In this document: in pieces, positions 18,291 to 61,289 of the stretch
How positions within the stretch are numbered: position 1 is the stretch's first letter
Layout: every line of letters starts with the position of its first letter
Source of the DNA: Polyangiaceae bacterium
GTDB lineage: Bacteria; Myxococcota_A; Polyangia; Polyangiales; Polyangiaceae
DNA: 64,000 bases
NCBI GenBank assembly: GCA_037720395.1
Contig: JBBJMR010000004.1
Coordinates: forward strand, 10,535-74,534
Reading direction: 5' to 3'
The notes under the pieces: model-generated
What the model was told of the DNA's origin: nothing
The model's database searches: none
The model's input: the letters and a program-made list of their open reading frames with translations, nothing else
Position numbers and translations under genes: made by a program

Positions 18291-18826
18291 GACCGGCCAG
18301 GACACCACCCGGTCAGACGGCAATTAAACGTCCCAGCGGCGTCACCGCTCACCCACTTCGTCGCACCTGGCCGTTGCGGTCTCGAATGAGCGGGTCGGCT
18401 GTGCGCGCTTGTGAGCAAGCGGCGCGTGGGGCGGGGCGCCGGAGAATGGGTGGTGACTTTGGCAGGTCGTCACACGGGCGATAGGAGCTCGGTAGGGATG
18501 GGAACGGCGGGCTCCCCGTCTGCCAGGTGACGGTGGCGGTCCACCGGCTTCAGCACCGGACGCCGCCGACTGCGCGGGCGGTCGGGCGCGGTCGCACCAC
18601 TCGGACGGCTCGCACTCGGCGAAGGTGTCGAGGATCCGCCGCGGCGAAGCGGATTGCGCGCAGATGCGAAGTGGGGACGCGTGCGCGCAGCCTCGGTGCG
18701 AAGCGGACCGCGCGCGCGCTGTAGAGATCTTCGTCACTCGCCGGCAGTTCGCCGGCCTCGTCGCGCGGCAGCTGCCCTGGGCACGACCTTGCATTGGTCG
18801 CCGGCGTGCATCGACATCCGCGCGCC

Positions 18827-20506
18827 ATGCGGGCAGGAGCAGGAAACCCACGAGCGCTCGCGGCGGCGCTGCTCGTGGCCGCAGCGTGCACGACGCGTGC
18901 AGCGGCGGCCGACATCACCGGCGTGGTGGTGACCATCGACTCCGGCGACCTGGTCCTCGACCTCGGCGCCGAGCAAGGCATCCGCGAAGGCCAGGAGGTC
19001 GAGATCTGGCGACCGCTGACGCTGCGCCACCCGGTGACCGGCAAGCGGATCGCCGATCGCTTCAAGATCGGGACGCTGGTCATCGGCCAGGTGCGCCCCA
19101 CCATCGCCATTGCCACACCTGTCGACGGGCTCTCCCGCGATCCTGCGGCTGGCGACGTGATCGTGGTGCGCGGCGCAGGCGGTCCGGCGCCCGCGCCCGC
19201 AGCGCCCGCGCCCGCAGCGCCCGGGCGTGCGCCGGTGGTGCTCGCGCCACCCCCGCCCTCCGAAGGACCAGCGAAGGCCGGAGGTGCCGCCCCGGCCTCC
19301 GATCCCGAGGCGGCCGCGCTGGCGGTGATGTTCGACGGGCTCCGCGGCGCCACGCTCTCCGTGCGCATCCGCTCCTACGAGGAGTACACGCGCACCCGGC
19401 CGCGGAGCCGCTTCGCGCCGGTGCTCTACGAGGAGGCGCAGGCGCTGCGGGCCATCTACGCCGGCGCCAGGCGCGGCGACGGCGACCCGACCGCAGGCAC
19501 CGGACCGCCTCGACCCAGGCTCCGCGGCTTCGTTCCACCCGACGAGGTGCGCGCCAACGAGCCGTTGCGCCTGGCGGTGGAGCTCGCCGACGCGTCCGGC
19601 GCCGTGCTCCACGCGCGACGACCGGGCGAGGGGACGTTCGCCTCCACCCCGATGACCGCCGTGGGCGCCGGCTACTTCGCCGCCCACGTGCCCGCCGCCA
19701 AGGTCACCGGCACGGAGGTGGAGATCTTCATCGAGGGCACCGACGCCAGCGGCGCCGCCACGCCCGTGCTCGGCACCCCCGACGCGCCTACCACCGTCTC
19801 GGTGCGTCCGCCGCCGCGGCCGCGCGCCCCCGAGAACCGTCGCTCCAGCGTCTTCGTGCTCACCGACTACGCCAGCTACAACCGGCTCGAGGGCAACGAC
19901 GTCGCCTGGCAGACGGAGGGCTACTTCGGCCAGCGATTCGGTGACGTCGGGGTGCGCGCGCTGCGCACCGGCTTCGGCGTGTACCGCGGCGTCGGCGGGA
20001 CGCTCGAGGAGCTCGACCAGCGGGGCCTCGACGGTCGCAAGGTCGGCCTCACCTACGGCTACCTGGAGACCGAGCTCGGCGTGGTGGCGTCGTTCGCGTT
20101 CGTGGCGCGGGCCGTCGTCGGGCTGCTCGACGACGGCGTGTCCGGCGGCGGGCAGCTGCAGGTGCGCATCGGCAGCGATCTGGAGACCAACCTGGTGCTC
20201 GGGGGCGAGCTGCTCGGTGGAGTCGGCCTGCGCAGCTTCGCCCAGCTCGAGCTCAACACCTTCCGGCGCTTCCCCATCGTCCTGCGCAGCGAGGTGACCA
20301 ATCAGCCGGCAGGCGCCGGGCCCAGCGAGGACGACCTCGGCCCGGGCATCGCGCAAGGCGACGGGGAGGTCGGCGCCCGCGGCATCGCCCAGCTGGGCTT
20401 TCGCATCGTGCCCCAGCTCGTGGTCGCCGCGCGCGGCTCGTTCCAGGGGCGGACCATCAACCATGCGGGGCCCGGCGCCGGGCTCGGGGTGGGGTACGAA
20501 TGGTGA
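18827..20506 (+). CDS. Secreted protein with putative C-terminal beta-barrel (ends ...GVGYEW)
   Basis: Signal peptide ALAAALLVAAACTTRAAAA. Alternating-residue C-terminal region with a terminal aromatic residue. Paralogous to the next gene. Confidence 0.5.
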   Translation: MRAGAGNPRALAAALLVAAACTTRAAAADITGVVVTIDSGDLVLDLGAEQGIREGQEVEIWRPLTLRHPVTGKRIADRFKIGTLVIGQVRPTIAIATPVDGLSRDPAAGDVIVVRGAGGPAPAPAAPAPAAPGRAPVVLAPPPPSEGPAKAGGAAPASDPEAAALAVMFDGLRGATLSVRIRSYEEYTRTRPRSRFAPVLYEEAQALRAIYAGARRGDGDPTAGTGPPRPRLRGFVPPDEVRANEPLRLAVELADASGAVLHARRPGEGTFASTPMTAVGAGYFAAHVPAAKVTGTEVEIFIEGTDASGAATPVLGTPDAPTTVSVRPPPRPRAPENRRSSVFVLTDYASYNRLEGNDVAWQTEGYFGQRFGDVGVRALRTGFGVYRGVGGTLEELDQRGLDGRKVGLTYGYLETELGVVASFAFVARAVVGLLDDGVSGGGQLQVRIGSDLETNLVLGGELLGGVGLRSFAQLELNTFRRFPIVLRSEVTNQPAGAGPSEDDLGPGIAQGDGEVGARGIAQLGFRIVPQLVVAARGSFQGRTINHAGPGAGLGVGYEW

Positions 20507-21753
20507 GCGACACTGTTGCGCATCGGACCTCGGACGTCGCCGTTCTGGCTGCGATCATTGACGCCGCCTCGACGCTGTCGGCGCAGCCGGCCAGCAGCGG
20601 TGCGCCGGACGCCCCGCCCGCCGCCTCCACGGCACCGGATGCCACGGCGTCCGGGCCAGCGAGCGGTGCTGCCACGACGGCGGCCGCCTCCGCCGGGGCT
20701 TCCGCGCCGCGTCTGCATCACGCTCCGTTCTCGGTCGCCCGCCCGCACGAGCCGCTGAAGATCCGTGCCGAGGTCGAACACCCTCAGCTCCTCCGCGGCG
20801 CCAGCGTCGTCTACCGCAGTGCCAGCGGCGCCACGCGCGCCGTGCAATTCGCGCGCGCGCCCGCGGGAGGCTACCTGGCCGTCATCCCCGCCGAGGAGGT
20901 GGTCCCGCCCGCGCTCGCCTACACCATCGAGCTCGAGCACATCGACGGCTCGCGCAGCAGCGCCTTCGCCTCGCGGGCGGAGATGCAGCCGGTGCAGGTC
21001 CTCGAGGACGACATGGATGCGCGCGAGCGCGCTCAGCTCGAGCGCCTCGGCGGCCGTCGCTCGGTGGCCACGGTCGGCATGGACCTGGTGAGCTTCGGAG
21101 AGACCTCTGGCAAGGGCGCCATCCCCTGCGCCGCGGGCGGGGCTGGCTGCCAGCCCGGGCAGAGCAAGGTCCCCGTGCGAATCAACGATCAGTACTGGAA
21201 GGTCGAGGCCGCTTACACCTACCGCTTCCTGCGCACGGTGGCCGAGTTCAGCCTGCGCGGCGGGGTGGTGCGCGGAACGTCGTTGGTACAGCTCGAGGAG
21301 TACGACGAGGATCGATACGACGTCGGCCTCAACTATGCCGCACCGAGCTTGCGCTTCCGGCTCGCCGACACCTGGCACCTGGAGGCGGAGGTGCTCACCA
21401 GCGTCACCGAGGTCGGGTTCTCGGTGGGCACCGGCGCGGCCTTGCTCATCGGCGACCCCTACGGCTCGCGTCTCACGCTCGGCGCGCAGACCATCGGCGT
21501 TGCCGAGGGGACTTACTTCGGGACGCGCATCTACAGCCGCATGGACATTGCCGCGACGGAGCGCGTCACCATCGCCCCGATCATCGAGGCCACGGACATG
21601 CCGCACGCCGACGTCTTCGGCGTGCGCTTGCTGGCCGAGGCCTCGGTGGCCATCGGGGGTGGGTTCGGCGTGGCGGTGCGGGGCGGCTATCAGGCGCGAC
21701 GCTCTGCCTCCGGCGGCGTCGGGGTGGGCGGAACGGCGTCGCTGGCGTTCTGA
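20500..21753 (+). CDS. Paralogous secreted protein with putative C-terminal beta-barrel (ends ...ASLAF)
   Basis: ATGGTGA start/stop overlap with the upstream gene. Shares a middle domain (HAPFSVARPHEPLKIRAEV... versus FVPPDEVRANEPLRLAVEL...). Terminal Phe. Confidence 0.5.
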   Translation: MVSDTVAHRTSDVAVLAAIIDAASTLSAQPASSGAPDAPPAASTAPDATASGPASGAATTAAASAGASAPRLHHAPFSVARPHEPLKIRAEVEHPQLLRGASVVYRSASGATRAVQFARAPAGGYLAVIPAEEVVPPALAYTIELEHIDGSRSSAFASRAEMQPVQVLEDDMDARERAQLERLGGRRSVATVGMDLVSFGETSGKGAIPCAAGGAGCQPGQSKVPVRINDQYWKVEAAYTYRFLRTVAEFSLRGGVVRGTSLVQLEEYDEDRYDVGLNYAAPSLRFRLADTWHLEAEVLTSVTEVGFSVGTGAALLIGDPYGSRLTLGAQTIGVAEGTYFGTRIYSRMDIAATERVTIAPIIEATDMPHADVFGVRLLAEASVAIGGGFGVAVRGGYQARRSASGGVGVGGTASLAF

Positions 21754-21865: not shown

Positions 21866-22321
21866 ATGCCGAAGATCGATCGCTCCACGGCCGAGGTCTC
21901 GAAAGGTGCCGGTTATCCCGAGCCGTTTGCGGCCGCGTGCCGGGGGCGCGAGCGCACGCGCCTGGGCAAGGCGGGCGGGCTCGGCGACTTCGGGGTCAAC
22001 CTGCTCCGCTTGCCGCCGGGCGCCTGGTCGAGCCAGCGCCACTGGCACACGAAGGAGGACGAGCTGGTCTGGGTCGTGGAGGGCGAGGTGACGCTCGTCG
22101 AGGACGGGGCCGAGACGCGCCTCGTCCCGGGCGACTGCGCGGCCTTCCCGGCGGGCGCGCAGAACGGCCACCACCTCGTCAATCGCAGCGATCGCGACGC
22201 GGTGGTGCTGGAGGTCGGCTCCAGTCGCGAGGAGGACGTCTGCCACTACCCGGACATCGATCTCCAGGCGCGCCCGGAGGGCTACGTCCACCGGGACGGC
22301 ACGCCCTACCCCGAGCGCTGA
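21866..22321 (+). CDS. Cupin-domain protein
   Basis: 151 aa from the ATG at 21866. Cupin motifs HWHTKEDELVWVVEGE and PAGAQNGHHLVN. Confidence 0.75.
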   Translation: MPKIDRSTAEVSKGAGYPEPFAAACRGRERTRLGKAGGLGDFGVNLLRLPPGAWSSQRHWHTKEDELVWVVEGEVTLVEDGAETRLVPGDCAAFPAGAQNGHHLVNRSDRDAVVLEVGSSREEDVCHYPDIDLQARPEGYVHRDGTPYPER

Positions 22322-22511
22322 GGCGACGCGCCCCCGGGGTCGAATCCCGCGGAACCAACTCCCCCCGCCGGCCGTATGGCGCTCGGGGCCGCGCCTCGGC
22401 ATCATGGGCTTCGCCATCCGGGCCGCGCCCCCATTCTGGCGGCCTTCGCAGTACCTCGCGCCCGCGGGCGCACCGCAAGGAGCGACGGCTCGCGCCGTCG
22501 ACCGATACCCG

Positions 22512-23411
22512 ATGGACCTCGTTCGTTACGCGCTGCCCTCGTTGCTGGCGCTGTCGATGCCGTTGCTGTCCGCCTGCGAGGGCGGCGCATCCGATGCCGG
22601 GCTTGCCCCCACGGCGACGGCGCTGGCGCCGAGCAAGCCGGCGGCGGCCTCGGCGCGCCCGATGGTCATCGACAAGGCCTCGAGCAAGCTCGACTTCATG
22701 ATGGAGGCGCCGGTGGAGAAGATCCGTGGCCGCGTCGTGGGCGCCACCGAGGGGCAGATCCAGGTCGACCCCAGCGACATCTCCAAGACCACCGGCTTCC
22801 TCGCCGCCGACATCTCGGGCATCGAGCTCTACCAGCAGGTGCAGGACGACAAGACGAAGGAGTTCGGCAAGGAGGTGAAGAACGACACCCAGAACGAGCA
22901 CGCGCGCCAGTGGCTGGAGATCGGTCCGGACGCGCCCGAGGACGCGCGCAAGAACAACGGCCGCGTCGAGTTCGCCATCCGGAGGATCGAGGGCGCGTCC
23001 CAGAACGACGTCTCGAAGATGACCGGGCCGACCCGCAAGGTGACCTTCAAGGCCGTCGGCGACTTCCTCCTGCACGGGCGCAAGACGGAGAAGACCGCGG
23101 AGCTCGAGGCGACGTTCACCTACGCCGGCGACGAGCCGACCGCGGTCAGCGTGCGCACGGTGAAGCCGTTCGCCGTTGGCCTGGCCGAGCACGACGTCCG
23201 CCCGCGCAAGGGGTTCGGCGTCCTGGCCGAGAAGGGCCTGGAGCTGCTCGCGCCCAAGGTGGCCAAAGAGGCGCTGGTGTCCGTGGAGGTCATGGCGCGT
23301 CCGGGAACCATGCCGGCGGGCTCGTCCGCTGCCGCGCCGGGCGCCAGCGGGGCCCCGGCGGCCAGCGCGGCCGCCGCTGCTGCATCCGCTTCGAGCGCCG
23401 GGGCGAAGTGA
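22512..23411 (+). CDS. YceI-like periplasmic lipoprotein
   Basis: Lipobox LLSAC. Beta-rich domain with SKLDFMMEAPVEKIRGRV and GDFLLHGRKTEKTAEL, resembling the YceI pattern. Ala-rich tail. Confidence 0.5.
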   Translation: MDLVRYALPSLLALSMPLLSACEGGASDAGLAPTATALAPSKPAAASARPMVIDKASSKLDFMMEAPVEKIRGRVVGATEGQIQVDPSDISKTTGFLAADISGIELYQQVQDDKTKEFGKEVKNDTQNEHARQWLEIGPDAPEDARKNNGRVEFAIRRIEGASQNDVSKMTGPTRKVTFKAVGDFLLHGRKTEKTAELEATFTYAGDEPTAVSVRTVKPFAVGLAEHDVRPRKGFGVLAEKGLELLAPKVAKEALVSVEVMARPGTMPAGSSAAAPGASGAPAASAAAAAASASSAGAK

Positions 23412-23441: not shown

Positions 23442-23467
23442 TGAAACCGAGCTGGCGCCGAGGCGTA
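23442..23467 (+). promoter_or_regulatory. Candidate ECF-sigma-type promoter (TGAAAC-N16-CGTA)
   Basis: An AAC-N16-CGT arrangement lies about 40 nt upstream of the precursor ATG. RBS GGAGGAG at 23491-23497. Motif-level inference only. Confidence 0.3.
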
Positions 23468-23504
23468 GTGTCGGGGAAGCGAACGAAAGCGGAGGAGTCG
23501 AGCG

Positions 23505-23876
23505 ATGTTCCAGATGAAGCAGATCTACGAGACGTTGGCGGTGCTGGGCACGGGTGCGGTGCTCCTCACGGGTTGCGGCGGATCCGACACGCCGGTCAAC
23601 GCGCCCGAGGTCCCCGCTGCGGCGCCGGCCGGGGCCGCCGCGCCCGAGGCCGCCACGCCCGCCACCACCGAGGGCACCGCCGGCGATGCGGCCGCCGCCG
23701 ACGGCAACGCCGCTGCGGCGCCGGCCGACGCCGCGGCCGCCGCCTCGGCGAGCGCAGGCTCCACCGCCGCGGCGCGACCGCCGCCGCCGGTCGTCAAGAA
23801 GGCACCCGCCAAGAAGGCCGCCGCCACCAAGAAGAAGGGCGCCGCCGGCAGCTGCGGCGAGGGCACCTGCGGCTGA
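23505..23876 (+). CDS. Putative lipoprotein-type RiPP/metallophore precursor (C-terminal SCGEGTCG)
   Basis: 123 aa. Lipobox LLTGC (Cys24), a long Ala/Pro-rich low-complexity linker, then a Lys-rich stretch. The only other Cys residues are Cys117 and Cys122 at the extreme C-terminus. Sits immediately upstream of the DUF692/DUF2063 pair. Confidence 0.5.
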   Translation: MFQMKQIYETLAVLGTGAVLLTGCGGSDTPVNAPEVPAAAPAGAAAPEAATPATTEGTAGDAAAADGNAAAAPADAAAAASASAGSTAAARPPPPVVKKAPAKKAAATKKKGAAGSCGEGTCG

Positions 23877-23883
23877 GCTGCTG

Positions 23884-23905
23884 GCGCGGCCCGCACGGGT
23901 CGCGC
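23884..23905 (+). promoter_or_regulatory. GC-rich stem-loop between precursor and maturase genes
   Basis: 9-bp stem (GCGCGGCCC / GGGTCGCGC with one G-U pair) and 4-nt loop, starting 8 nt after the precursor stop. No U-tract. Confidence 0.4.
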
Positions 23906-23932
23906 AGCGCACGGCAGTAGAAGGGGTGCAGG

Positions 23933-24817
23933 GTGGGCACCGTCGGCGTCGGGCTCGGACTGCGCTGGGACTTCCTCGAGGACGTCCTGGAGCGCATGGA
24001 GGGCGACGCCGGGGCCCTGGCACCCCTTTCGTTCTTCGAGGTCTCGCCGGAGAACTACATGCGCCGCGGTGGGTACTACCCGTCGGCGCTCGAGCGCGTG
24101 GCCGCGCGCTTCCCGCTCGTCGCCCACGGGCTGACGCTGTCGCTCGGAAGCCGCGATCCCTTCGACCTGGCTTACCTCGGCGAGCTGCGCGCCTTCCTCG
24201 GGCGCCTGGACGTGTCGCTCTACAGCGATCACCTCTGCTTCTCGGGCGACGGCGGACGGCTGGTGCACGAGCTGCTGCCTCTGCCGCTCACCACCGCCTC
24301 GGCGGTGCACGCCGCCGAGCGCCTGTGCGAGGTCTCGGGGCGCCTGGAGCGCGCGGTGGCAGTGGAGAACGTCACCCACTACCTGATCCCCGGCGCCGCC
24401 GCCCTCGACGAGGCGGACTTCATCGCCGAGGTGCTCGAGCGCGCCGACGCGCGCCTTGTCCTGGACGTGAACAACGTGGTCGTCAATGCAAAGAACTACG
24501 GCTTCGACGCGCGTCGCTTCCTGGAGCGCTTGCCGCTCTCGCGCGTCGTCCAGGTGCACGTCGCCGGGCACGAGTGGTCCGAGGACGATGGCCTCTTCCT
24601 CGACAGCCACGGCGCGCCCGTCGACGATCCGGTCTTCGCACACCTCGAGTGGCTGGTGGAGCGCACCGGGCCGGTGCCGGTGCTCCTGGAGCGCGACCAC
24701 CAGGTGCCGCCGCTCGACACGCTGCTGGAGGAGGCGACGCGCGTGGAGGCCGCCTACCGCCGCGGGCTCTCACGGCGCGCCGTGGACGCGCCGGCGCTGG
24801 GTGCGAGCCATGGGTGA
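23933..24817 (+). CDS. DUF692 family (MbnB/TglH-like) multinuclear non-heme iron enzyme
   Basis: Family hallmarks [71 protein letters not shown] and LLERD. Confidence 0.85.
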
Positions 24818-25652
24818 GCGCCCCGACGCCGTGGCGCCGCGCGAGCGCGCCCGCTTCGAGGCCCTGCTCGGCGCCGTGCACCAGCTCATCCAGGACGCGG
24901 ACGCGCCGGCCGCGGTGGCCGGGGATCGCCGCGCCTGGCTGAGCGCACACGGCGTGCATGCCGACGACATCGAGGCGCTGTGTGCGCTCCCGCCGGCGCG
25001 GCTGCTCCTGTATCGCAAGCTGGCGCGACGCACGCTGCGCGGCGCCATCCGCCAGGAGGTCCCGCGCACCGCGGCCCGCCTGGGCGAGCGCTTCGAGGCC
25101 GACGTGGAGCGCTGGCTCGACCTCGAGATGCCGCGCTCGCACTACCTGCGCGACGTGGCCTTCGAGCTGGTGGCCTGGGTGGTGCCGCGCTGGGCCGCCG
25201 ACCCCGCGGTTCCGGCGTGGATGGGGGAGCTGGCCCAGCACGAGCTGATGGAGCTGGCCGTGGCCACCACCCCGGCAGCGGCGCCCGGCGCCCCGCCGGC
25301 CCCGCTGGCCCTCGATCGCGGTCTGGCCTTCCACCCGGCGGCGCGCGTCATCCGCTACCGCCACGCCGTGCACCAGCTCGCTGCCGATCTCGACGCGCGC
25401 GACGAGCCGCCGGCGCGCGAGACGGCGCTCTTCGCCTACCGCGACATCGCCGGGGAGGTGCGCTGGCTCGAGCTGTCGCCGCTGGCTGCGCGCCTGGTGG
25501 AGCGCGCGCTGGAGGGCGAGACGCTGCAGGTCGCCCTGGCCGACGCCTGCGCGGACACCGCCGAGACCCTGCGCCAGCCCGTCCTCGAAGGAGCGGCGCG
25601 CCTGCTCGCCGACCTGGCCGAGCGCGGCGCCCTGCTGGGGAGCGCCGGGTGA
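24810..25652 (+). CDS. DUF2063-like partner protein (MbnC/BufC/HvfC-type)
   Basis: 280 aa. 8-nt overlap with the DUF692 stop. Size and position match the obligate DUF692 partner. Sequence-level call is by recollection only. Confidence 0.55.
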
Positions 25653-25707
25653 GACTCGTGGGCCGGCTCCCGTCAGCGGTGCTACCGTCGCGCCCGCTGC
25701 GCCGATC

Positions 25708-26292
25708 ATGGACGAACCGGGCCTCAACGCGGCGATGGACCGCTACGCCTGCGGCGACGCGAGCGCCTTCGCCGTCATCCACGGCGAGCTCTTGCCGCGC
25801 CTGCGGGCGTTCCTCACCCGCATGACCGGCTCGCCGACGCTCGCCGACGACCTGGTGCAGGAGACCTTCCTGCGCATGCACCGCGCGCGCGCCACCTTCG
25901 TCGCCGGCGGCGCGGTGCTGCCCTGGGCCTACGCCATCGCCCGCAACGTGCACCTCGACCACGGCCGCTCCGCGCGCCTGCGCAAGACCGAGCGCCTGCC
26001 CAGCGATCCCGGCGCCGAGCCGGAGGACCCGTCGGCGACCGACGCCGAGTCGGCGGCCATCGCGGCCCAGGCGGCGCGCACCGTGGAGCGCGTGCTGGCC
26101 CGCCTGCCCCCGCAGCAGCGCGAGGCCTTCGTGCTCATCCGCTACGAAGGGATGAGCGTGCAGGACGCGGCGGCCATCCTCGGCGCCACGCCGACCGCGG
26201 TGAAGCTGCGCGCCTTCCGCGCCTACGAGGCGCTGCGCGCGGAGCTCGCCGAGCTGCGCGGACAGAGCAAGGGAGCCAGCGATGGCGCCTGA
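25708..26292 (+). CDS. ECF RNA polymerase sigma factor
   Basis: Region 2 (LADDLVQETFLRMHRA) and region 4 (LPPQQREAFVLIRYEGMSVQDAAAILGATPTAVKLRAFRA). Confidence 0.85.
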   Translation: MDEPGLNAAMDRYACGDASAFAVIHGELLPRLRAFLTRMTGSPTLADDLVQETFLRMHRARATFVAGGAVLPWAYAIARNVHLDHGRSARLRKTERLPSDPGAEPEDPSATDAESAAIAAQAARTVERVLARLPPQQREAFVLIRYEGMSVQDAAAILGATPTAVKLRAFRAYEALRAELAELRGQSKGASDGA

Positions 26293-26959
26293 CCTCGGCG
26301 ACCTGGCGGCGCTGGCCGACATCCCCGATCCGGTGCGGGCCGCCGCGCCGCCGGTGCCGGAAGCGGTCGCGCCGGCGGAGCCCTCGCCCACCCGCGCGCA
26401 GCGGCGGCGCCGGCTGATCATCGGCCTGGTGCTGGCCCTGTGCTGGGTGGCGGCGCTGACGCTGAAGACGGGTCTGCGCCCCGACCTGACGCCCTCGCTG
26501 CTCCTGGAGCTCGGCCTGTGGTCGGTGATGGCGGTGGTGGCCCTGGCCGTGGCGCTCTACCCGGGCCAGCGCGGTGTCTCGCTGCGCGTGTCGCTGCTCG
26601 GCGCCGCGCTCCTGGGCCTGCCGGCGTTCTTCCTGATCACCGCCCTGGCCTGGTCGATGGACGCGCCGCCGGTGCCGCTGACGCTGGCGACCTGGCGCGG
26701 TTGCATGAGCCTGGCCACGGGCATCGGGCTCGGGCCTCTGCTCATCGCGCTCTACCTGTTCCGGCACGCCTTCGTGGCCGCCGCCCCCTGGCGCCTCGGG
26801 CTCCTCGGGGCGGTCTGCGGGCTGGCGGGGACCATCGGCTGTCAGGCGCACTGCCCGCTGGGGCAGGCGTTCAGTCATGTCTCGCTGGCGCACGGCCTGC
26901 CCATCCTGATCGGCGGCATCGCCGGCCTGGCCTGGGGCCACTGGCGCGGCCGGGCCTGA
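26282..26959 (+). CDS. NrsF-like (DUF1109) multi-pass membrane anti-sigma factor
   Basis: 11-nt overlap with the sigma gene. About 6 TM helices with conserved-looking Cys/His residues near helix ends (GCMSLA, GCQAHCPLG, HVSLAHG). Confidence 0.5.
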   Translation: MAPDLGDLAALADIPDPVRAAAPPVPEAVAPAEPSPTRAQRRRRLIIGLVLALCWVAALTLKTGLRPDLTPSLLLELGLWSVMAVVALAVALYPGQRGVSLRVSLLGAALLGLPAFFLITALAWSMDAPPVPLTLATWRGCMSLATGIGLGPLLIALYLFRHAFVAAAPWRLGLLGAVCGLAGTIGCQAHCPLGQAFSHVSLAHGLPILIGGIAGLAWGHWRGRA

Positions 26960-27082
26960 CGTGTTTCGTCGGGCAACAGAGGGGTGGGAGCCGGCGCCGG
27001 TCGCCGCGCGTAGAATCGCCGCCGGCGACCACGGCACGTGCATCCGTCCCGGGGCACGCCGGCGAATGGGGATCCGAGGCCG

Positions 27083-29215
<2,133 letters not shown>

Positions 29216-46052: not shown

Positions 46053-46910
46053 CTACTTGCACTCCCCGAGGTGATCGACGGACATGGCCACCGCGGCGGC
46101 CTCGCAGTGGTTGCCGTAGGTGGTGCCGTCGCAGCCGCACACCGGGTCGTAGTTGTCCGGGCAGCCCTGGGGCTGCGGCTCGCACGCGCCGCCGATGTCC
46201 TCGACCTGGCAGGTGCCGTCGGGGTAGTGGCAATACGCGCCCGCATCGCACGGCACCCCACCCAGGCCGCCGCAGGCCTGCCCGGCGCAGGGGCCGTCGT
46301 GGTCGATGGACATCGCGGCGGCAGCCGCCATGCAGGCGTTGCCGTACGTCACGCCGTCGCATCCGCAAACAGGCGCGTAGCTCTTGTCGCATCCCTGGGG
46401 CACGGCCTTGCAAACACCGCTGGCGTCCGGCGACTGGCAGACGCCGATTGGAATGTCGCAGAAGGAGCCGGCATCGCAGGTCTCACCCTGGAGGCCGCCG
46501 CACTGCTGACAGGCCATGTCGGTGCAGGCCACGGAGCCGTCCCCGAGGCAGCTGCAGGAGTTGCAGCCGTCCGTCGACGGGAAGCTCGCGCCCACCGGGT
46601 AGACCTGCCCGCCGTACTCGCAGGTGCCCTCGCACTCCACGCCGCCGGAGACGCACTCGCCGGCGGCGTCGCACTCCTCGTAGATGGCGGGGCACGTCTC
46701 GCCCGTGCAGTTGCTGCACGCCTCCCCGCACTGCTTGCCGGCACACGGGTCGTTGCCGCCGCCGCCCGGCCCACTCGCGGGTGAGCCGGCACCGCTGCCG
46801 CCCGCGCCGCCGCTGCCGCCGGCGCCGCTGCCGCCCAGGTTCTGCGACTGCCCGCAGCCGAATGCGGCGGTGAGCAGCGCGACGGTGGCGATCGAAGACA
46901 AGAGTCGCAT
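46053..46910 (-). CDS. Lipoprotein with two Kazal-type inhibitor domains and a VWC-like Cys-rich module
   Basis: Lipobox AAFGC. Contains YAPVCGCDGVTYGNACMAAAAAMSIDHDGPC and YDPVCGCDGTTYGNHCEAAAVAMSVDHLGEC (Kazal pattern). Preceded by CEYGGQVYPVGASFPSTDGCNSCSCLGDGSVACTDMAC. Confidence 0.7.
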   Translation of the reverse strand: MRLLSSIATVALLTAAFGCGQSQNLGGSGAGGSGGAGGSGAGSPASGPGGGGNDPCAGKQCGEACSNCTGETCPAIYEECDAAGECVSGGVECEGTCEYGGQVYPVGASFPSTDGCNSCSCLGDGSVACTDMACQQCGGLQGETCDAGSFCDIPIGVCQSPDASGVCKAVPQGCDKSYAPVCGCDGVTYGNACMAAAAAMSIDHDGPCAGQACGGLGGVPCDAGAYCHYPDGTCQVEDIGGACEPQPQGCPDNYDPVCGCDGTTYGNHCEAAAVAMSVDHLGECK

Positions 46911-47015
46911 GGGTGTCCTTTCGGAAAAACGTGAGGAAGGAGGGCGGGCCGCAGCGGCCCTCGTCTTCCTTTGGGAGCACGCCCGGCTTTCCGTCACGCA
47001 GGGCGTCTCTTTTCT

Positions 47016-48109
47016 TCAGTCCAGCGGACCGACCGCCTGCTCGAGCACCGGGATCATCAGGCTCTGCGGGAAGCGCTGCTTGAACGCCTGGGCGCGCTGG
47101 CGGGCCTCGCCGATGCGGCCGGCGGCGGCGAGGGCGCGGATGCGAAGCGTCTCGCGCTCCTCGCCCAGGCGACCCCGCGGATACTGACGGGCGTGCTCGT
47201 CGAGCGCCGCGAGCGCGTCCGCGCCGCGACCCTGGGCGATGGCAGCGTGCGCGCGCTCGATGAGGGCGCGCTCGGCGGCCAGGCCCTCGTCGCGTCCCGG
47301 GGGCGAGGCGGCCCCAGGGACGCCGGCTGCCGGAGCGGCCGCTGCCGGAGCGGCCGTCGGCTTCGCGGCGGTCGCGGCGGTCGCCGCAGTCGTGGCGGGT
47401 GGCGGCGCGCTCGACGGTACGTCGCGCTTCGCCCCGGGCAGCGCGTCGTTCGCCGCGACGGGCGCGTCGCCGGGCGGCGGAGATGCGGGCGCGATCGATG
47501 GCTCGGGCGCGACGACGCTCGGATCCACCTCGGCAGCGTGCGGCACGTCGGCGACCGGCACCGCTGCACGCGCCGCGGCCGCGACCTCGGCCTCGGCCTC
47601 GGCCTCCGCGGTGCTCTGCGCGTCGACCACGCTCGGCGGCGCCGCAGGACCGGGCTGGGACGCGTAGATGCCCACCGCGCCCGCGCCGATGGCCAGCGCG
47701 GCGATGCCGATGGCCAGCGGCTTCGCGAACAGCGCGGCGAGCACGCCGCCCGAGGTGACCGCGCCGGCGGCGGATGCGCCGATGCCGCTCGCCGCCGCAC
47801 CTGCGACGGCCGCGCCACCAGCAGCCACGCCGCCGGCAGCCACGCCACCAGCAGCCACGCCACCAGCAGCCACGCTGCCCGCCCCCGACGTGGCCAGCGC
47901 CGCACCGGCTGCCGCCGCGCCGCTCGCGCCGCGGCGCCGGTCGCTGCCGTGGTGCCGGCGACGCCGCCGCCGACCAGCGGGGCCGAGCAGCGGGCCGAGG
48001 CGCCTGGCCACGCGGCGCTGGGCGCGCCGGTCGGCGCGCGGCGCTTGCGCTCGGCGTCGAAGAGATCGGCGAGATCGTCGGGAAGCGGTTCGATGTCTCG
48101 CTCGCTCAT
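47016..48109 (-). CDS. Anti-sigma factor-like membrane protein (frame ambiguity in first ~250 nt)
   Basis: The ATG at 48109 gives an acidic N-terminus MSERDIEPLPDDLADLFDAE. The TM helix LFAKPLAIGIAALAIGAGAVGIYA and the TPR-like C-terminus lie in the frame of ORF 47016-48710, so a frame change between about 47800 and 48000 is implied. Confidence 0.5.
47814..47873. repeat. 4 x 15-bp tandem repeat (GCCACCAGCAGCCAC) inside the anti-sigma gene
   Basis: Three perfect units and one variant unit, read directly. Encodes (VAAGG)n or (WLLVA)n depending on frame. Confidence 0.85.
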
Positions 48110-48706
48110 GGTTACCTCGCGTCTGCCGCAGATGCTCGACGGCGGCGCGCATCTCCGCGCGCGCCAGGCGGAGCCGGGAGTAGGCCGTGTTCAAGGGGAT
48201 GCCGAGCGCGGCGGCGATGACCGGCGCCGTGTGGCCGTCGATGTCGTGCATCACCAGGACCGCGCGCTTGTCGACATCGAGCGCCTCGAGCGCATCGAGC
48301 ACCAGATGGCGGCGCTCGGCGTCGGCGATCCGCCCTTCGACCGGCTGGCCCGGGTCGACCGGCTCGCGCTCGCCGTCGTGCACCTCGCGGCGGTGGTGGG
48401 CGCGGCGGCGGTAGTCCGAGGCGACGCGGAAGGCGATGCCGAACAGCCAGGCGCGCAGCGGGCGCGTGGGGTCGAAGTCGGTGAGCTTGGCGTGAACCAC
48501 CAGGAACACATCGTGGGTGACGTCCTCGAGGTCCGCCTCGCGCACGCCCAGGCGGCGCAGGCTGGCGAACACGTAGGAAAATTCGGCCTCGAAGACGGCG
48601 CGGAGCGTGGGCCGGCCGCACGCGCCCAACGGCGCGGGCACCGCCACCGCCCCGGGTAGCCGCTGGACCTCCACCGAGGGCATTTGGGGGCAGAGCGGCG
48701 GATCCG

Positions 48707-48710
<4 letters not shown>
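48110..48710 (-). CDS. ECF RNA polymerase sigma factor (no in-frame stop before the anti-sigma region)
   Basis: Region 2 DLEDVTHDVFLVVHAKL and region 4 VDKRAVLVMHDIDGHTAPVIAAALGIPLNTAYSRLRLAR. The frame continues uninterrupted to 47016. Confidence 0.8.
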
Positions 48711-60165: not shown

Positions 60166-61289
60166 GACCCCGACGCGGCGCGGCGGGCGCGCTGGTTGGC
60201 CATGGTGTGCGAGATGCCGGGCACGGTGGGTTGCACCGGCGCGTCACGCGCCGGGTCGCTGTTGCCGAACGAGGGCTGCGCCACCGGATCGCCGGTGGTC
60301 GGTGCCACGCCGCCGGGCGCGCCCTGCGGCGTCCACTGCCCGCCCGAATAGCGCGTCCCCGAGGGTGACGGCGGCACGCCGGGGTACGGCTGGGAGTAGA
60401 GCGCCGAGGGGCGGGCGTAGGCGCTGGAGATCTCGAGCGCCGAGCCCAGCGCCTCGACCAGCTCCTTGGCGGACTGGAAGCGGTGCGCCGGGTCGCGCGC
60501 CGCCGCGCGCGCCCACCAGGCGTCGATGCCCGGCGGAAGATCGGGCGCCACGTGCGACGGGACGGGCAGGGGCTGGACGATGATCTTCACCAGCAGGTCG
60601 CCCAGGGCCTCGCTGATGAAGGGAAGCTGCCCGGTGAGGCACCGGTAGGCGACCACGGCCATCGACCAGAGATCGCTGCGCCAGTCGACCGACTTGATGC
60701 CCTGCGCCTGCTCCGGGCTCATGTAGCTCGGGGTGCCGAGCAGCGCGCCGGTGGCCGTGCTGCCGTGGGAGATGGACACGCTGGTGCTCTTGGCGATGCC
60801 GAAGTCGAGGATCTTTGCCGTCTCGTGCTCGTCATCGCGGATGAGGAACACGTTCTCCGGCTTCAGGTCGCGGTGCACCAGGCCGGCGGCGTGCGCCTTG
60901 CCGAGCGCGCGCGCCATCTGCGAGAGCAGCAGCCAGGTGTCCATCGGCGCCAGGCGACCGAGGCGGTGCAGGCGTCGTCCGAGGTCTTCGCCCTCCAGGT
61001 ACTCCATGGCGATGTAGGGCATGCCCTCGCACTCGCCGTAGTCGATGACCTGCACCACGTGCGGGCTCTTGAGCTGCGCCACCACCCTGGCCTCGCGCTC
61101 GAAGCGCGCTCGGGTGTCCTTGGCGGCGGCGACGTGGGCGTGGATGAACTTCACCGCGCAGGAGGTGTCGAGGCCGATGTGGTGGGCGAGCCAGACCTCG
61201 CCCATGCCCCCGCGGCCGAGCGCGCGCACCAGCCGGAAGCGATCGGCGATGACCGTTCCTTCCGCGAGCCGCAATCCACCGTCCTCCAC
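60162..61289 (-). CDS. Ser/Thr protein kinase
   Basis: Contains GRGGMGEVW, AVK, HRDLKPENVF, DFGIAK and SPE. Start set at GTG 61289, about 15 aa before the G-loop. The longest ORF extends to 61610. Confidence 0.9.
   Translation of the reverse strand: MEDGGLRLAEGTVIADRFRLVRALGRGGMGEVWLAHHIGLDTSCAVKFIHAHVAAAKDTRARFEREARVVAQLKSPHVVQVIDYGECEGMPYIAMEYLEGEDLGRRLHRLGRLAPMDTWLLLSQMARALGKAHAAGLVHRDLKPENVFLIRDDEHETAKILDFGIAKSTSVSISHGSTATGALLGTPSYMSPEQAQGIKSVDWRSDLWSMAVVAYRCLTGQLPFISEALGDLLVKIIVQPLPVPSHVAPDLPPGIDAWWARAAARDPAHRFQSAKELVEALGSALEISSAYARPSALYSQPYPGVPPSPSGTRYSGGQWTPQGAPGGVAPTTGDPVAQPSFGNSDPARDAPVQPTVPGISHTMANQRARRAASGS

Follow-up and report, generated by a model that had tools for sequence, protein, structure and literature searches.

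We analyzed a 64,000-nucleotide stretch of the genome of a Polyangiaceae bacterium (assembly GCA_037720395.1, contig JBBJMR010000004.1, positions 10,535 to 74,534 of the forward strand; "the window" hereafter means this whole 64-kb stretch), which has a G+C content of about 72%. Between 22.3 and 29.2 kb lies a compact block of seven genes, all on the + strand, whose products are, in order, a YceI-like lipoprotein, a small lipoprotein that is the putative precursor of a peptide made by the ribosome and modified after translation (RiPP), an MNIO (DUF692) enzyme, its HvfC/DUF2063-type partner, an extracytoplasmic function (ECF) sigma factor, an NrsF-type anti-sigma factor and a receptor Ser/Thr kinase (Table 1). 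By analogy with characterized systems, we consider it probable that the block is an operon under ECF sigma control and that its product is a metal-binding captophorin (bufferin/oxazolin) lipoprotein that carries a lipid anchor and is modified by the MNIO. A preliminary description of the locus, made from the letters of the sequence, had already pointed to an atypical lipoprotein precursor beside a DUF692 enzyme, a DUF2063-sized partner and an ECF sigma/anti-sigma pair. These genes were all recovered, and the architecture it proposed holds, as one of the bufferin/oxazolin captophorin type, but the novelty it claimed does not. It also lacked two partners that are conserved across relatives, the YceI-like lipoprotein and the Ser/Thr kinase with a domain resembling formylglycine-generating enzyme (FGE).

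For comparison, one genome per species was scanned for relatives of the MNIO enzyme. This yielded 80 loci (46-64% identity), all of them from Myxococcota and mostly from metagenome-assembled genomes (MAGs) of Polyangiaceae.

Table 1. Features of the gene block, in window coordinates.
Feature	Position	Strand	Basis
ECF-type promoter-like motif GGAACC-N16-CGTA, 5′ of the YceI-like gene	22351..22376	+	Motif match
YceI-like lipoprotein gene	22404..23411	+	Open reading frame start at 22404; probable start ATG at 22512, giving the signal MDLVRYALPSLLALSMPLLSAC
ECF-type promoter-like motif GAAACC-N15-CGTA, whose end lies 38 nt 5′ of the precursor ATG	23443..23467	+	Motif match
Precursor gene, lipoprotein-type putative MNIO substrate, 123 amino acids	23505..23876	+	GC3, ribosome-binding site, conservation, homology
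Signal peptide (residues 1-23) and lipobox L-T-G-C, Cys24 the predicted lipidation site	23505..23576	+	Read in the sequence; ETLA.LG...GC pattern kept across the family
Conserved short motif PVNAPEVPAA (residues 30-39), just past the lipidation site	23592..23621	+	Family conservation
Lys-rich segment VVKKAPAKKAAATKKKG (residues 96-112), ahead of the core	23790..23840	+	Lys-rich stretch before the terminal motif in essentially all homologs
Core SCGEGTCG (residues 116-123), Cys117 and Cys122 the predicted modification sites	23850..23873	+	Conservation
MNIO (DUF692) enzyme, HvfB/BufB clade	23933..24817	+	PF05114, E 3.4e-85; NCBIfam scores
HvfC/DUF2063-type partner (PME1) with C-terminal RiPP recognition element-like domain	24810..25652	+	Overlaps the MNIO stop by 8 nt
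ECF sigma factor	25708..26292	+	Sigma70_r2 and r4_2 (regions 2 and 4)
NrsF-type membrane anti-sigma factor	26282..26959	+	PF06532, 36.3 bits (cutoff 26.8); overlaps the sigma gene by 11 nt
Receptor Ser/Thr kinase, 725 amino acids: cytoplasmic kinase domain, one transmembrane segment (residues 385-416), periplasmic FGE-sulfatase-like domain	27038..29215	+	Domain scans

The precursor and its putative modifying enzymes

Because open frames are cheap in a genome of such high G+C, the open reading frame (ORF) of the precursor was itself put to the test. Its G+C at third codon positions (GC3) is 0.919, as against 0.92-0.96 in the neighboring genes and 0.74-0.76 in the overlapping alternative frames, and a ribosome-binding site, GGAGGAG, lies 7 nt 5′ of its start. 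It is the only ORF ending in CGxGxC in all six frames of the window, which also holds no second MNIO gene and no second partner gene. Furthermore, an equivalent ORF stands directly 5′ of the MNIO gene in 65 of the 80 loci, which bears out the conservation beside DUF692 in other Myxococcota on which the preliminary description had let its assignment depend. The coding bias, the ribosome-binding site, the unique tail and the conserved position upstream of the MNIO gene thus indicate that this small ORF is a real gene and that it belongs with the MNIO enzyme. Its product has the LLTGC lipobox, the Ala/Pro-rich spacer, the Lys-rich stretch and the two C-terminal Cys residues that had been described. 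The mature form has 100 residues (Ala 38%, Pro 12%, Gly 12%), and its only Cys residues outside the lipobox, 117 and 122, both lie in the terminal SCGEGTCG.

Two other readings of this part of the locus were rejected. In a MYXO-CTERM tag, a transmembrane helix and then a basic tail come after an invariant Cys motif; the precursor stops one residue after Cys122 with no hydrophobic or transmembrane segment following, which rules out such a tag. A hairpin between the precursor and MNIO genes, with a folding energy of -33.7 kcal/mol, might have served as an attenuator or terminator, but its z score against shuffled sequences is only -0.77, and no T-tract terminator was found on the + strand between the two genes.

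The equivalent ORFs in the relatives end in CG[A/E/P/Q]G[T/S]C plus one of G, S and A; in occasional cases a short basic extension comes after the terminal motif. Every one of these ORFs whose N-terminus is not lost at a contig end begins with a lipoprotein signal. A search with a profile of close homologs found 76 clusters among 1.84 billion representative proteins. Among 84 precursor homologs, the lipobox is present in 80 and the tail in 70, and most of the others look truncated. The only name that sources give to homologs is "hypothetical protein". Four elements are conserved: the signal peptide and lipobox, (S/T)PVxAxEVPAA, the Lys-rich stretch and the terminal Cys pair; the remainder is a variable, low-complexity linker. 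The signal peptide recurrently reads (E)TLAALG ... [A/G]C, and (S/T)PVxAxEVPAA or ATEVP follows the lipobox Cys at a distance of 6-12 residues in nearly all members. An EVP-like motif occurs in 75 of the 84 homologs, Pro37 being invariant in alignment A2, and we infer that PVNAPEVPAA is a candidate element for recognition by the partner or for sorting. At the C-terminus, C117, G118, E119, G120, T121 and C122 are invariant in close homologs, and the consensus across the family is CG[A/E/P/Q]GTC[G/S/A]. In several relatives the linker holds a further 2-9 GxCG(A) repeats (e.g. KDGEAGSCGA, GEGSCGAK) and the terminal motif is kept, which ties the family to the EGKCG-repeat substrates of the oxazolin type. 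The window precursor, with the terminal pair only, reads as the minimal version of the family.

Variants of the terminus were seen in some members. In the homologs P0024, P0041, P0043, P0049, P0055 and P0066 two additional Cys residues flank the core (e.g. ...KPCQAGCGEGTCGSPCG), which suggests a four-Cys terminal site in some lineages. The tail runs past the second Cys (...CGAGTCSADAKKKIL or ...SAKK) in loci L057, L059, L064, L070, L074 and L076 and in loci L044, L050, L058, L068 and L077. This extended-tail subgroup, which includes Labilithrix MAGs, has no downstream kinase, and in six of its loci the partner and MNIO genes converge, the partner gene lying on the other strand.

The MNIO enzyme was called a clear DUF692 protein in the preliminary description, and the scan placed it squarely in that family (Table 1). 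Against the NCBIfam models it scored 271 bits for HvfB, 259 for BufB, 82 for ApyH, 36 for ChrH and 25.5 for MbnB, under the equivalog cutoff in all cases and far from the cutoffs of MbnB (325) and ChrH (600); the NCBIfam scan of the locus found no MbnC. The nearest solved structure is the Histophilus DUF692 protein 3BWW (E 2.9e-45), with TglH and MbnB ranking behind it. Conservation is at least 97% across 81 sequences at residues H65, D99, H100, E145, D178, N180, H209, D224, H226, E253 and D255, a set that we take, from MbnB-type sites, to be the pattern expected for a multi-iron centre. The enzyme therefore appears intact and groups with HvfB/BufB rather than with MbnB, ChrH or ApyH.

The partner, which had been identified by its size, proved to be HvfC/DUF2063-like, as had been supposed. 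It matches NGO1945_C with 54.6 bits (cutoff 27; E 1.4e-14), falls just under the cutoff for DUF2063 (23.4 bits, 27.2 required) and aligns with the NCBIfam HvfC model over positions 21-236 of 237 (E 1.1e-29; 104 bits, equivalog cutoff 142). A search of solved structures with the partner gave no sequence-level match. The partner gene is present in 77 of the 80 loci. Neither the MNIO enzyme nor the partner has a signal peptide, so that modification of the precursor would have to come before export. This order is known from the bufferins, which undergo modification in the cytoplasm before Sec exports them and which give Caulobacter protection against copper; their modification does not need the signal peptide, and DoxX is dispensable for it.

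The MNIO-PME1 (DUF2063) pairs examined so far all install 5-thiooxazoles, the re-examined oxazolin included. In one of them, FonBC, two 5-mer repeats are needed, Thr or Ala is tolerated at position 3 and Gly or Ala at position 5, and Pro is rejected. The tail of the window precursor splits into two such 5-mers, AGSCG and EGTCG, which by comparison of sequences conform to all of the FonBC substrate rules; the earlier likening of the tail to an E-G-x-C-G context was thus reasonable. By analogy, the product is most likely a triacylated lipoprotein with two C-terminal 5-thiooxazoles that bind copper.

A different chemistry on the C-x4-C tail is conceivable: oxazolone-thioamides, a single modification, a Cys-Cys cross-link or macrocycle, or processing of the C-terminal Cys-Gly. 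MNIOs catalyze very diverse reactions on Cys motifs, and FonBC itself modified some non-canonical 5-mers once only. The terminal C-G-x-G-T-C is fixed even in members with oxazolin-like repeats, which suggests a special role for it, and both enzymes of the window score under every equivalog cutoff. Nevertheless, the uniform outcome in the MNIO-PME1 systems examined so far speaks for 5-thiooxazoles; the ChrH-type macrocyclases differ in architecture, and the low ChrH and MbnB scores together with the missing MbnC argue in the same direction. We therefore regard another chemistry as unlikely.

We also considered whether the small lipoprotein might not be the MNIO substrate at all, and instead present an unmodified CxxxxC metal or redox site or be a mere neighbor, with the true substrate encoded elsewhere. 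The precursor lies outside every curated precursor family, and 15 of the 80 loci keep the MNIO and partner genes with no precursor ORF. However, where the ORF is present it lies immediately 5′ of the MNIO gene, and its only invariant features are the signal peptide, the short motif and the Cys pair. Its tail fits substrate rules that were defined by experiment, whereas the other proteins of the cluster have no conserved Cys beyond the lipobox, C22 being the sole invariant Cys of the YceI-like family. The same precursor assignment was moreover made by an independent group (van der Donk lab). That the lipoprotein is not the MNIO substrate is accordingly very improbable.

Regulation and proposed mechanism

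Alignment of the regions 5′ of the precursor in close relatives of the window gave an ECF-type motif, GAAACC-N15/16-CGTA, which resembles the SigF site of Caulobacter, GTAACC-N16-CGAA. The pattern G[A/G/T]AACC-N15/16-CGTA has two matches on both strands of the whole window, where 0.11 would be expected, and these are the two sites before the YceI-like and precursor genes (Table 1). In 36 of 73 loci the strict motif lies no more than 1 kb 5′ of the MNIO gene, compared with 2 matches in 864 kb of background, and at other loci, in several relatives, its place is instead 5′ of the YceI-like gene. The operon region yielded no sigma-70-like promoter. Since the ECF-type motif occurs at the two expected places only and is kept in relatives, and since no sigma-70-like promoter was found, the block is probably an ECF-controlled operon. 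The exact Caulobacter SigF consensus is absent from the locus; its sole match in the window (48089-48115, - strand) runs from the end of another ECF sigma gene across the start codon of the ORF that follows and is probably a coincidence. That second ECF sigma gene is followed by a likely anti-sigma ORF (47016-48710, - strand). The intergenic region between the NrsF and kinase genes (26960-27037) contains GGAGCC-N16-CGTAGA, which bears a degenerate resemblance to the ECF-type motif and falls outside the pattern used.

The anti-sigma factor has about six hydrophobic segments, as the preliminary description had it, and its Cys141 and His190-Cys191-Pro192 are conserved in four orthologs. In Caulobacter, two conserved periplasmic Cys residues of NrsF are needed to keep SigF inactive, and chromate or cadmium releases SigF. 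The weight that had been put on the link of the cluster to a sigma/NrsF pair was not sustained: an adjacent pair occurs in the window and in only 3 of the 80 relatives (L001, L002 and L011), which are the closest relatives of the window among the loci and have sigma orthologs of 68-75% identity at the same position. As the motif is widely kept while sigma and NrsF are adjacent in four loci only, ECF control looks like a feature of the whole family and the embedded pair like a feature of the window's lineage.

These elements suggest the following course of events. Envelope metal stress or thiol-reactive stress would inactivate NrsF through its conserved Cys and His residues, and the freed sigma factor would transcribe the YceI-like gene and the operon from precursor through MNIO, partner and sigma to NrsF, possibly including the kinase. 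In the cytoplasm, an MNIO/partner heterodimer would bind the precursor and oxidize Cys117 and Cys122 to 5-thiooxazoles, with a loss of 4 Da each and 8 Da in total. Sec would then export the modified precursor, Cys24 would receive its lipid and signal peptidase II would cleave the protein. Because the residue at +2 is Gly and not Lys, which in M. xanthus marks inner-membrane lipoproteins, the product would probably go to the outer membrane. The end state would be a disordered Ala/Pro-rich tether of about 100 residues with a Lys-rich segment and a bis-thiooxazole site of N2S2 type, which may sequester a soft metal, Cu(I) or another, at the membrane.

This interpretation draws on the HvfB/BufB-like MNIO, the HvfC-type partner, the invariant Cys pair, its fit to the FonBC rules, and the precedents of the SigF/NrsF-controlled bufferins and of NedA, a lipidated oxazolin discussed below. 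Several points weigh against it. The MNIO and its partner, scoring under the HvfB, BufB and HvfC equivalog cutoffs, form a separate subfamily whose reaction could differ, and the precursor is under the cutoff of the curated HvfA motif and belongs to no Pfam family. Those related loci in which no such precursor adjoins the MNIO gene (15 of 80) count on the same side. In addition, the promoter assignment is a motif match, the predicted sorting is extrapolated from the rules for Myxococcus, and the metal specificity of the presumed bis-thiooxazole site is assumed by analogy.

YceI-like lipoprotein and receptor kinase

The YceI-like protein of the window matches the Pfam family YceI (PF04264) weakly (E 0.006-0.009). 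The assignment is made on account of its orthologs, of which 11 of 17 match the Pfam model (best E 1.5e-6). A profile of the orthologs gave against the PDB only a weak match, to 3HPE of H. pylori (E 0.049). The gene lies 5′ of the MNIO gene in 51 of the 80 loci, most of the orthologs have a lipobox, and a bufferin cluster of Legionella has been reported to contain a YceI gene as well. In L020, L035, L040, L042 and L069 the YceI-like gene directly precedes the MNIO gene with no CGxGTC precursor between them, and the YceI-like proteins of these loci have no C-terminal Cys. In L018 (2524-3954) and L046 (1280-2560) the YceI-like frame continues without a stop into the precursor ORF (476 and 426 amino acids, respectively); because both frames keep the internal lipoprotein signal, a quirk of assembly or of the stop codon is more likely than a functional fusion.

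The product of the kinase gene matches Pkinase (E 1.7e-29) and FGE-sulfatase (PF03781; E 6.8e-51), and the VAIK, HRD, DFG and APE motifs of the kinase domain are all present. At the positions of Cys336 and Cys341 of human FGE, the window kinase has Gly and Thr and its orthologs NGS..W, and the catalytic Cys pair is absent in all orthologs checked. This rules out a role of the C-terminal domain as a catalytic FGE or cuproenzyme, and the loss of the catalytic Cys suggests that the FGE-like domain is a binding or sensor domain rather than a formylglycine-generating enzyme. The gene is directly 3′ of the partner gene in 45 of the 80 loci, often abutting or overlapping the partner stop, and its orthologs are 41-75% identical. 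Both kinases and FGE-sulfatase domains are abundant in Polyangiaceae, with 360 and 69, respectively, in M. rosea, and we therefore put weight on the conserved position and not on mere adjacency. The YceI-like lipoprotein and the kinase seem to belong to the same module as the precursor and the MNIO. The presence of the kinase also follows the type of tail, since it is found in 43 of 50 short-tail loci, in 1 of 12 extended-tail loci and in 1 of 13 precursor-less loci (nominal Fisher p 4e-11, the loci not being phylogenetically independent). A second Ser/Thr kinase paralog is encoded elsewhere in the window (60399-61259, - strand) and is 29% identical to the kinase domain of the operon kinase.

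This arrangement raises the possibility that the locus is a signaling module instead of, or besides, a metal buffer. The modified tail, free or metal-loaded, would be the ligand of the periplasmic FGE-like domain, which has descended from a Cu(I)- and Cys-peptide-binding enzyme and lost its own Cys residues, so that the lipoprotein would act as a tethered ligand or co-sensor of the receptor kinase. The metal status of the envelope would then be converted into phosphorylation, possibly of an ECF sigma factor in relatives with no adjacent NrsF, and the kinase might control the ECF promoter there. In keeping with this, in most relatives the kinase gene directly adjoins the partner gene or overlaps it, and it is rare where the tail is extended or the precursor missing (2 of 25 such loci), the FGE-like domain uniformly lacks the catalytic Cys pair, as expected of a binding domain and not of an enzyme, and the ECF-type promoter is kept in loci with no sigma/anti-sigma pair in the sequence examined. 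Fusions of a Buf1 bufferin, a cytochrome c and an FGE-sulfatase domain are also known elsewhere. Nonetheless, the abundance of both domains in Polyangiaceae lowers the value of their presence here, the co-occurrence of kinase and tail type is confounded by phylogeny, and the window's lineage already has a dedicated sensor in NrsF. We therefore hold a signaling role to be rather improbable; if it is real, the system would be a new kind of envelope metal sensor, in which a RiPP-type metallophore gives its metal site to a eukaryotic-like kinase. The link of the family to the kinase and the YceI-like lipoprotein leads to testable hypotheses on how myxobacteria couple envelope metal status to signaling.

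Relation to known systems

The genes that mark a captophorin-type system are present: an MNIO (PF05114) of the HvfB/BufB clade, an adjacent DUF2063/PME1 partner and a signal-bearing Cys precursor beside the MNIO gene. The preliminary description had presented a lipid-anchored substrate as new, and in this it was anticipated. The van der Donk lab has systematically mined lipoprotein precursors adjacent to MNIO genes (preprint PMC12636315; PNAS 2026, PMC13056109) and lists a "Cluster X, likely uncharacterized RiPP precursor", with a lipoprotein signal and a "highly conserved CxxxxC motif". Their SI Table S6 gives six Cluster X sequences (e.g. MLSKKSIYETLAALSAGAMVMSGCGGAQAPVNAAEVPAE...KKPGHAGCGAGTCG), and the main text of PMC13056109 devotes two sentences to the cluster, no member being characterized. 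The window precursor is 57% identical to one of the listed sequences over residues 1-49 (BLASTP, E 3e-16) and matches a second with an E-value of 2e-6. It has in common with Cluster X the SPII signal KSIYETLAALG...GCGG, PVNAxEVPA, the Ala/Pro-rich linker, the Lys-rich stretch, the terminal CG[A/E/Q]GTC[G/A] and the MNIO neighbor, and it differs in having a sigma/NrsF pair within the cluster, an arrangement rarely seen among family members. Kinase, YceI and sigma factor all go unmentioned in the main text of PMC13056109.

The same papers describe NedA, a lipidated oxazolin of Neisseria dentiae that was obtained from E. coli in triacylated form, 4 Da lighter for each EGKCG motif. NedA and NedBC resemble the window system in the lipoprotein signal of the precursor, the MNIO with a DUF2063-type partner and the xGxCG motifs, and NedA is proposed to hold copper at the membrane. 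However, NedA comes from another phylum and has three canonical EGKCG repeats, whereas in the window precursor a linker of about 90 residues leads to one degenerate pair at the extreme C-terminus. A similar relation holds to the oxazolin (HvfABC), fontiphorin (FonABC) and gonophorin systems, with which the window shares an HvfB-like MNIO, an HvfC-like partner and a Cys-Gly dyad in a five-residue register, two repeats being the minimal substrate of FonBC. In contrast to the EGKCG captophorins, the window precursor has no Lys-Cys repeats and is predicted to be lipid-anchored, and no DoxX accompanies it in the operon. With one EGTCG and one AGSCG in its tail, the precursor scores 12.7 bits against the HvfA model NF050137 ("KCGExKCG_twice"; cutoff 19.5, E 0.075), and the enzymes likewise stay under their equivalog cutoffs. 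The lack of a following DoxX-type gene had been pointed out before, and domain scans of the operon genes and of the scanned flanking ORFs found none.

The SigF/NrsF-controlled bufferins of Caulobacter (BufABC(D)) resemble the window system in their Sec-exported Cys precursor, MNIO, DUF2063 partner, ECF sigma/NrsF pair and promoter architecture, and they act in metal stress. The small folded domains of the bufferins contrast with the putatively disordered window precursor. A Pfam scan matched the precursor to no family, DUF2282 included, and its two Cys residues outside the lipobox set it apart from Buf2, a type with 6 or 12 Cys that is marked by six conserved Cys; the operon here also lacks DoxX. 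About 16% of Buf2 bufferins are themselves predicted lipoproteins (Antoine et al. 2025). In the methanobactins (MbnABC), an MNIO makes pairs of a heterocycle and a sulfur ligand from Cys, and two such pairs chelate one Cu(I), a model for a C-x4-C tail modified at both Cys; at the present locus no MbnC was found, and a secreted chalkophore released by leader cleavage and transport genes are absent too. The lipidated macrocycle group chryseobasin/DybA, of the ChrH subfamily, is distinguished by a CPxCGxG motif and a C-terminal helical bundle in ChrH, where the window has CGxGTCG. The "CxxxxC" family of Antoine et al. 2025 (PMC12452194), compared by its description only, is alike in having a signal peptide, CxxxxC, an MNIO and DUF2063, but its clusters carry DoxX and 54% of them Lactamase_B_2, neither of which is present at this locus. 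The genome table of the same paper gives 5 DUF692 genes and no Buf1, Buf2 or Buf_EGKCG precursor for Sorangium cellulosum So ce56.

Taken together, these comparisons suggest that the window encodes a captophorin-class RiPP-lipoprotein of the Cluster X type and not a strict oxazolin, bufferin or methanobactin. The precursor family is thus already flagged in print, though uncharacterized, and the concept of a lipidated, MNIO-modified metallophore is already published, NedA lipidation having been shown. What we add is the ECF-type promoter conserved before the precursor and YceI-like genes, the sigma/NrsF pair in four loci and the conserved kinase with a Cys-less FGE-like domain; the kinase and YceI context of the family appears to be unreported in the main texts searched. 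If our interpretation is correct, no natural substrate of thiooxazole-forming MNIO/DUF2063 enzymes would be smaller than that of this family, in which one C-x4-C pair stands at a free C-terminus and the tether is disordered and lipid-anchored. It would be a convenient system for studying substrate recognition with no folded core or long repeats, the metal site formed by two adjacent thiooxazoles and the benefit of tethering in copper defence. Since the basic concept is published, this value is incremental.

Several other genes of the window were noted in passing. Upstream of the block on the + strand lie two adjacent, overlapping ORFs (18794-20506 and 20500-21753; 570 and 417 amino acids) with no significant Pfam family, the first having a sub-threshold match to FlgT_C (E 0.0013), and a cupin gene (21869-22321); none of the three is conserved beside the MNIO gene in relatives. 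On the - strand, positions 46053-46997 encode a very Cys-rich predicted lipoprotein of 314 amino acids (signal ...LLTAAFGCGQ) with repeated ...PVCGCDG(V/T)TYGN.C... units that resemble the Kazal/follistatin type.

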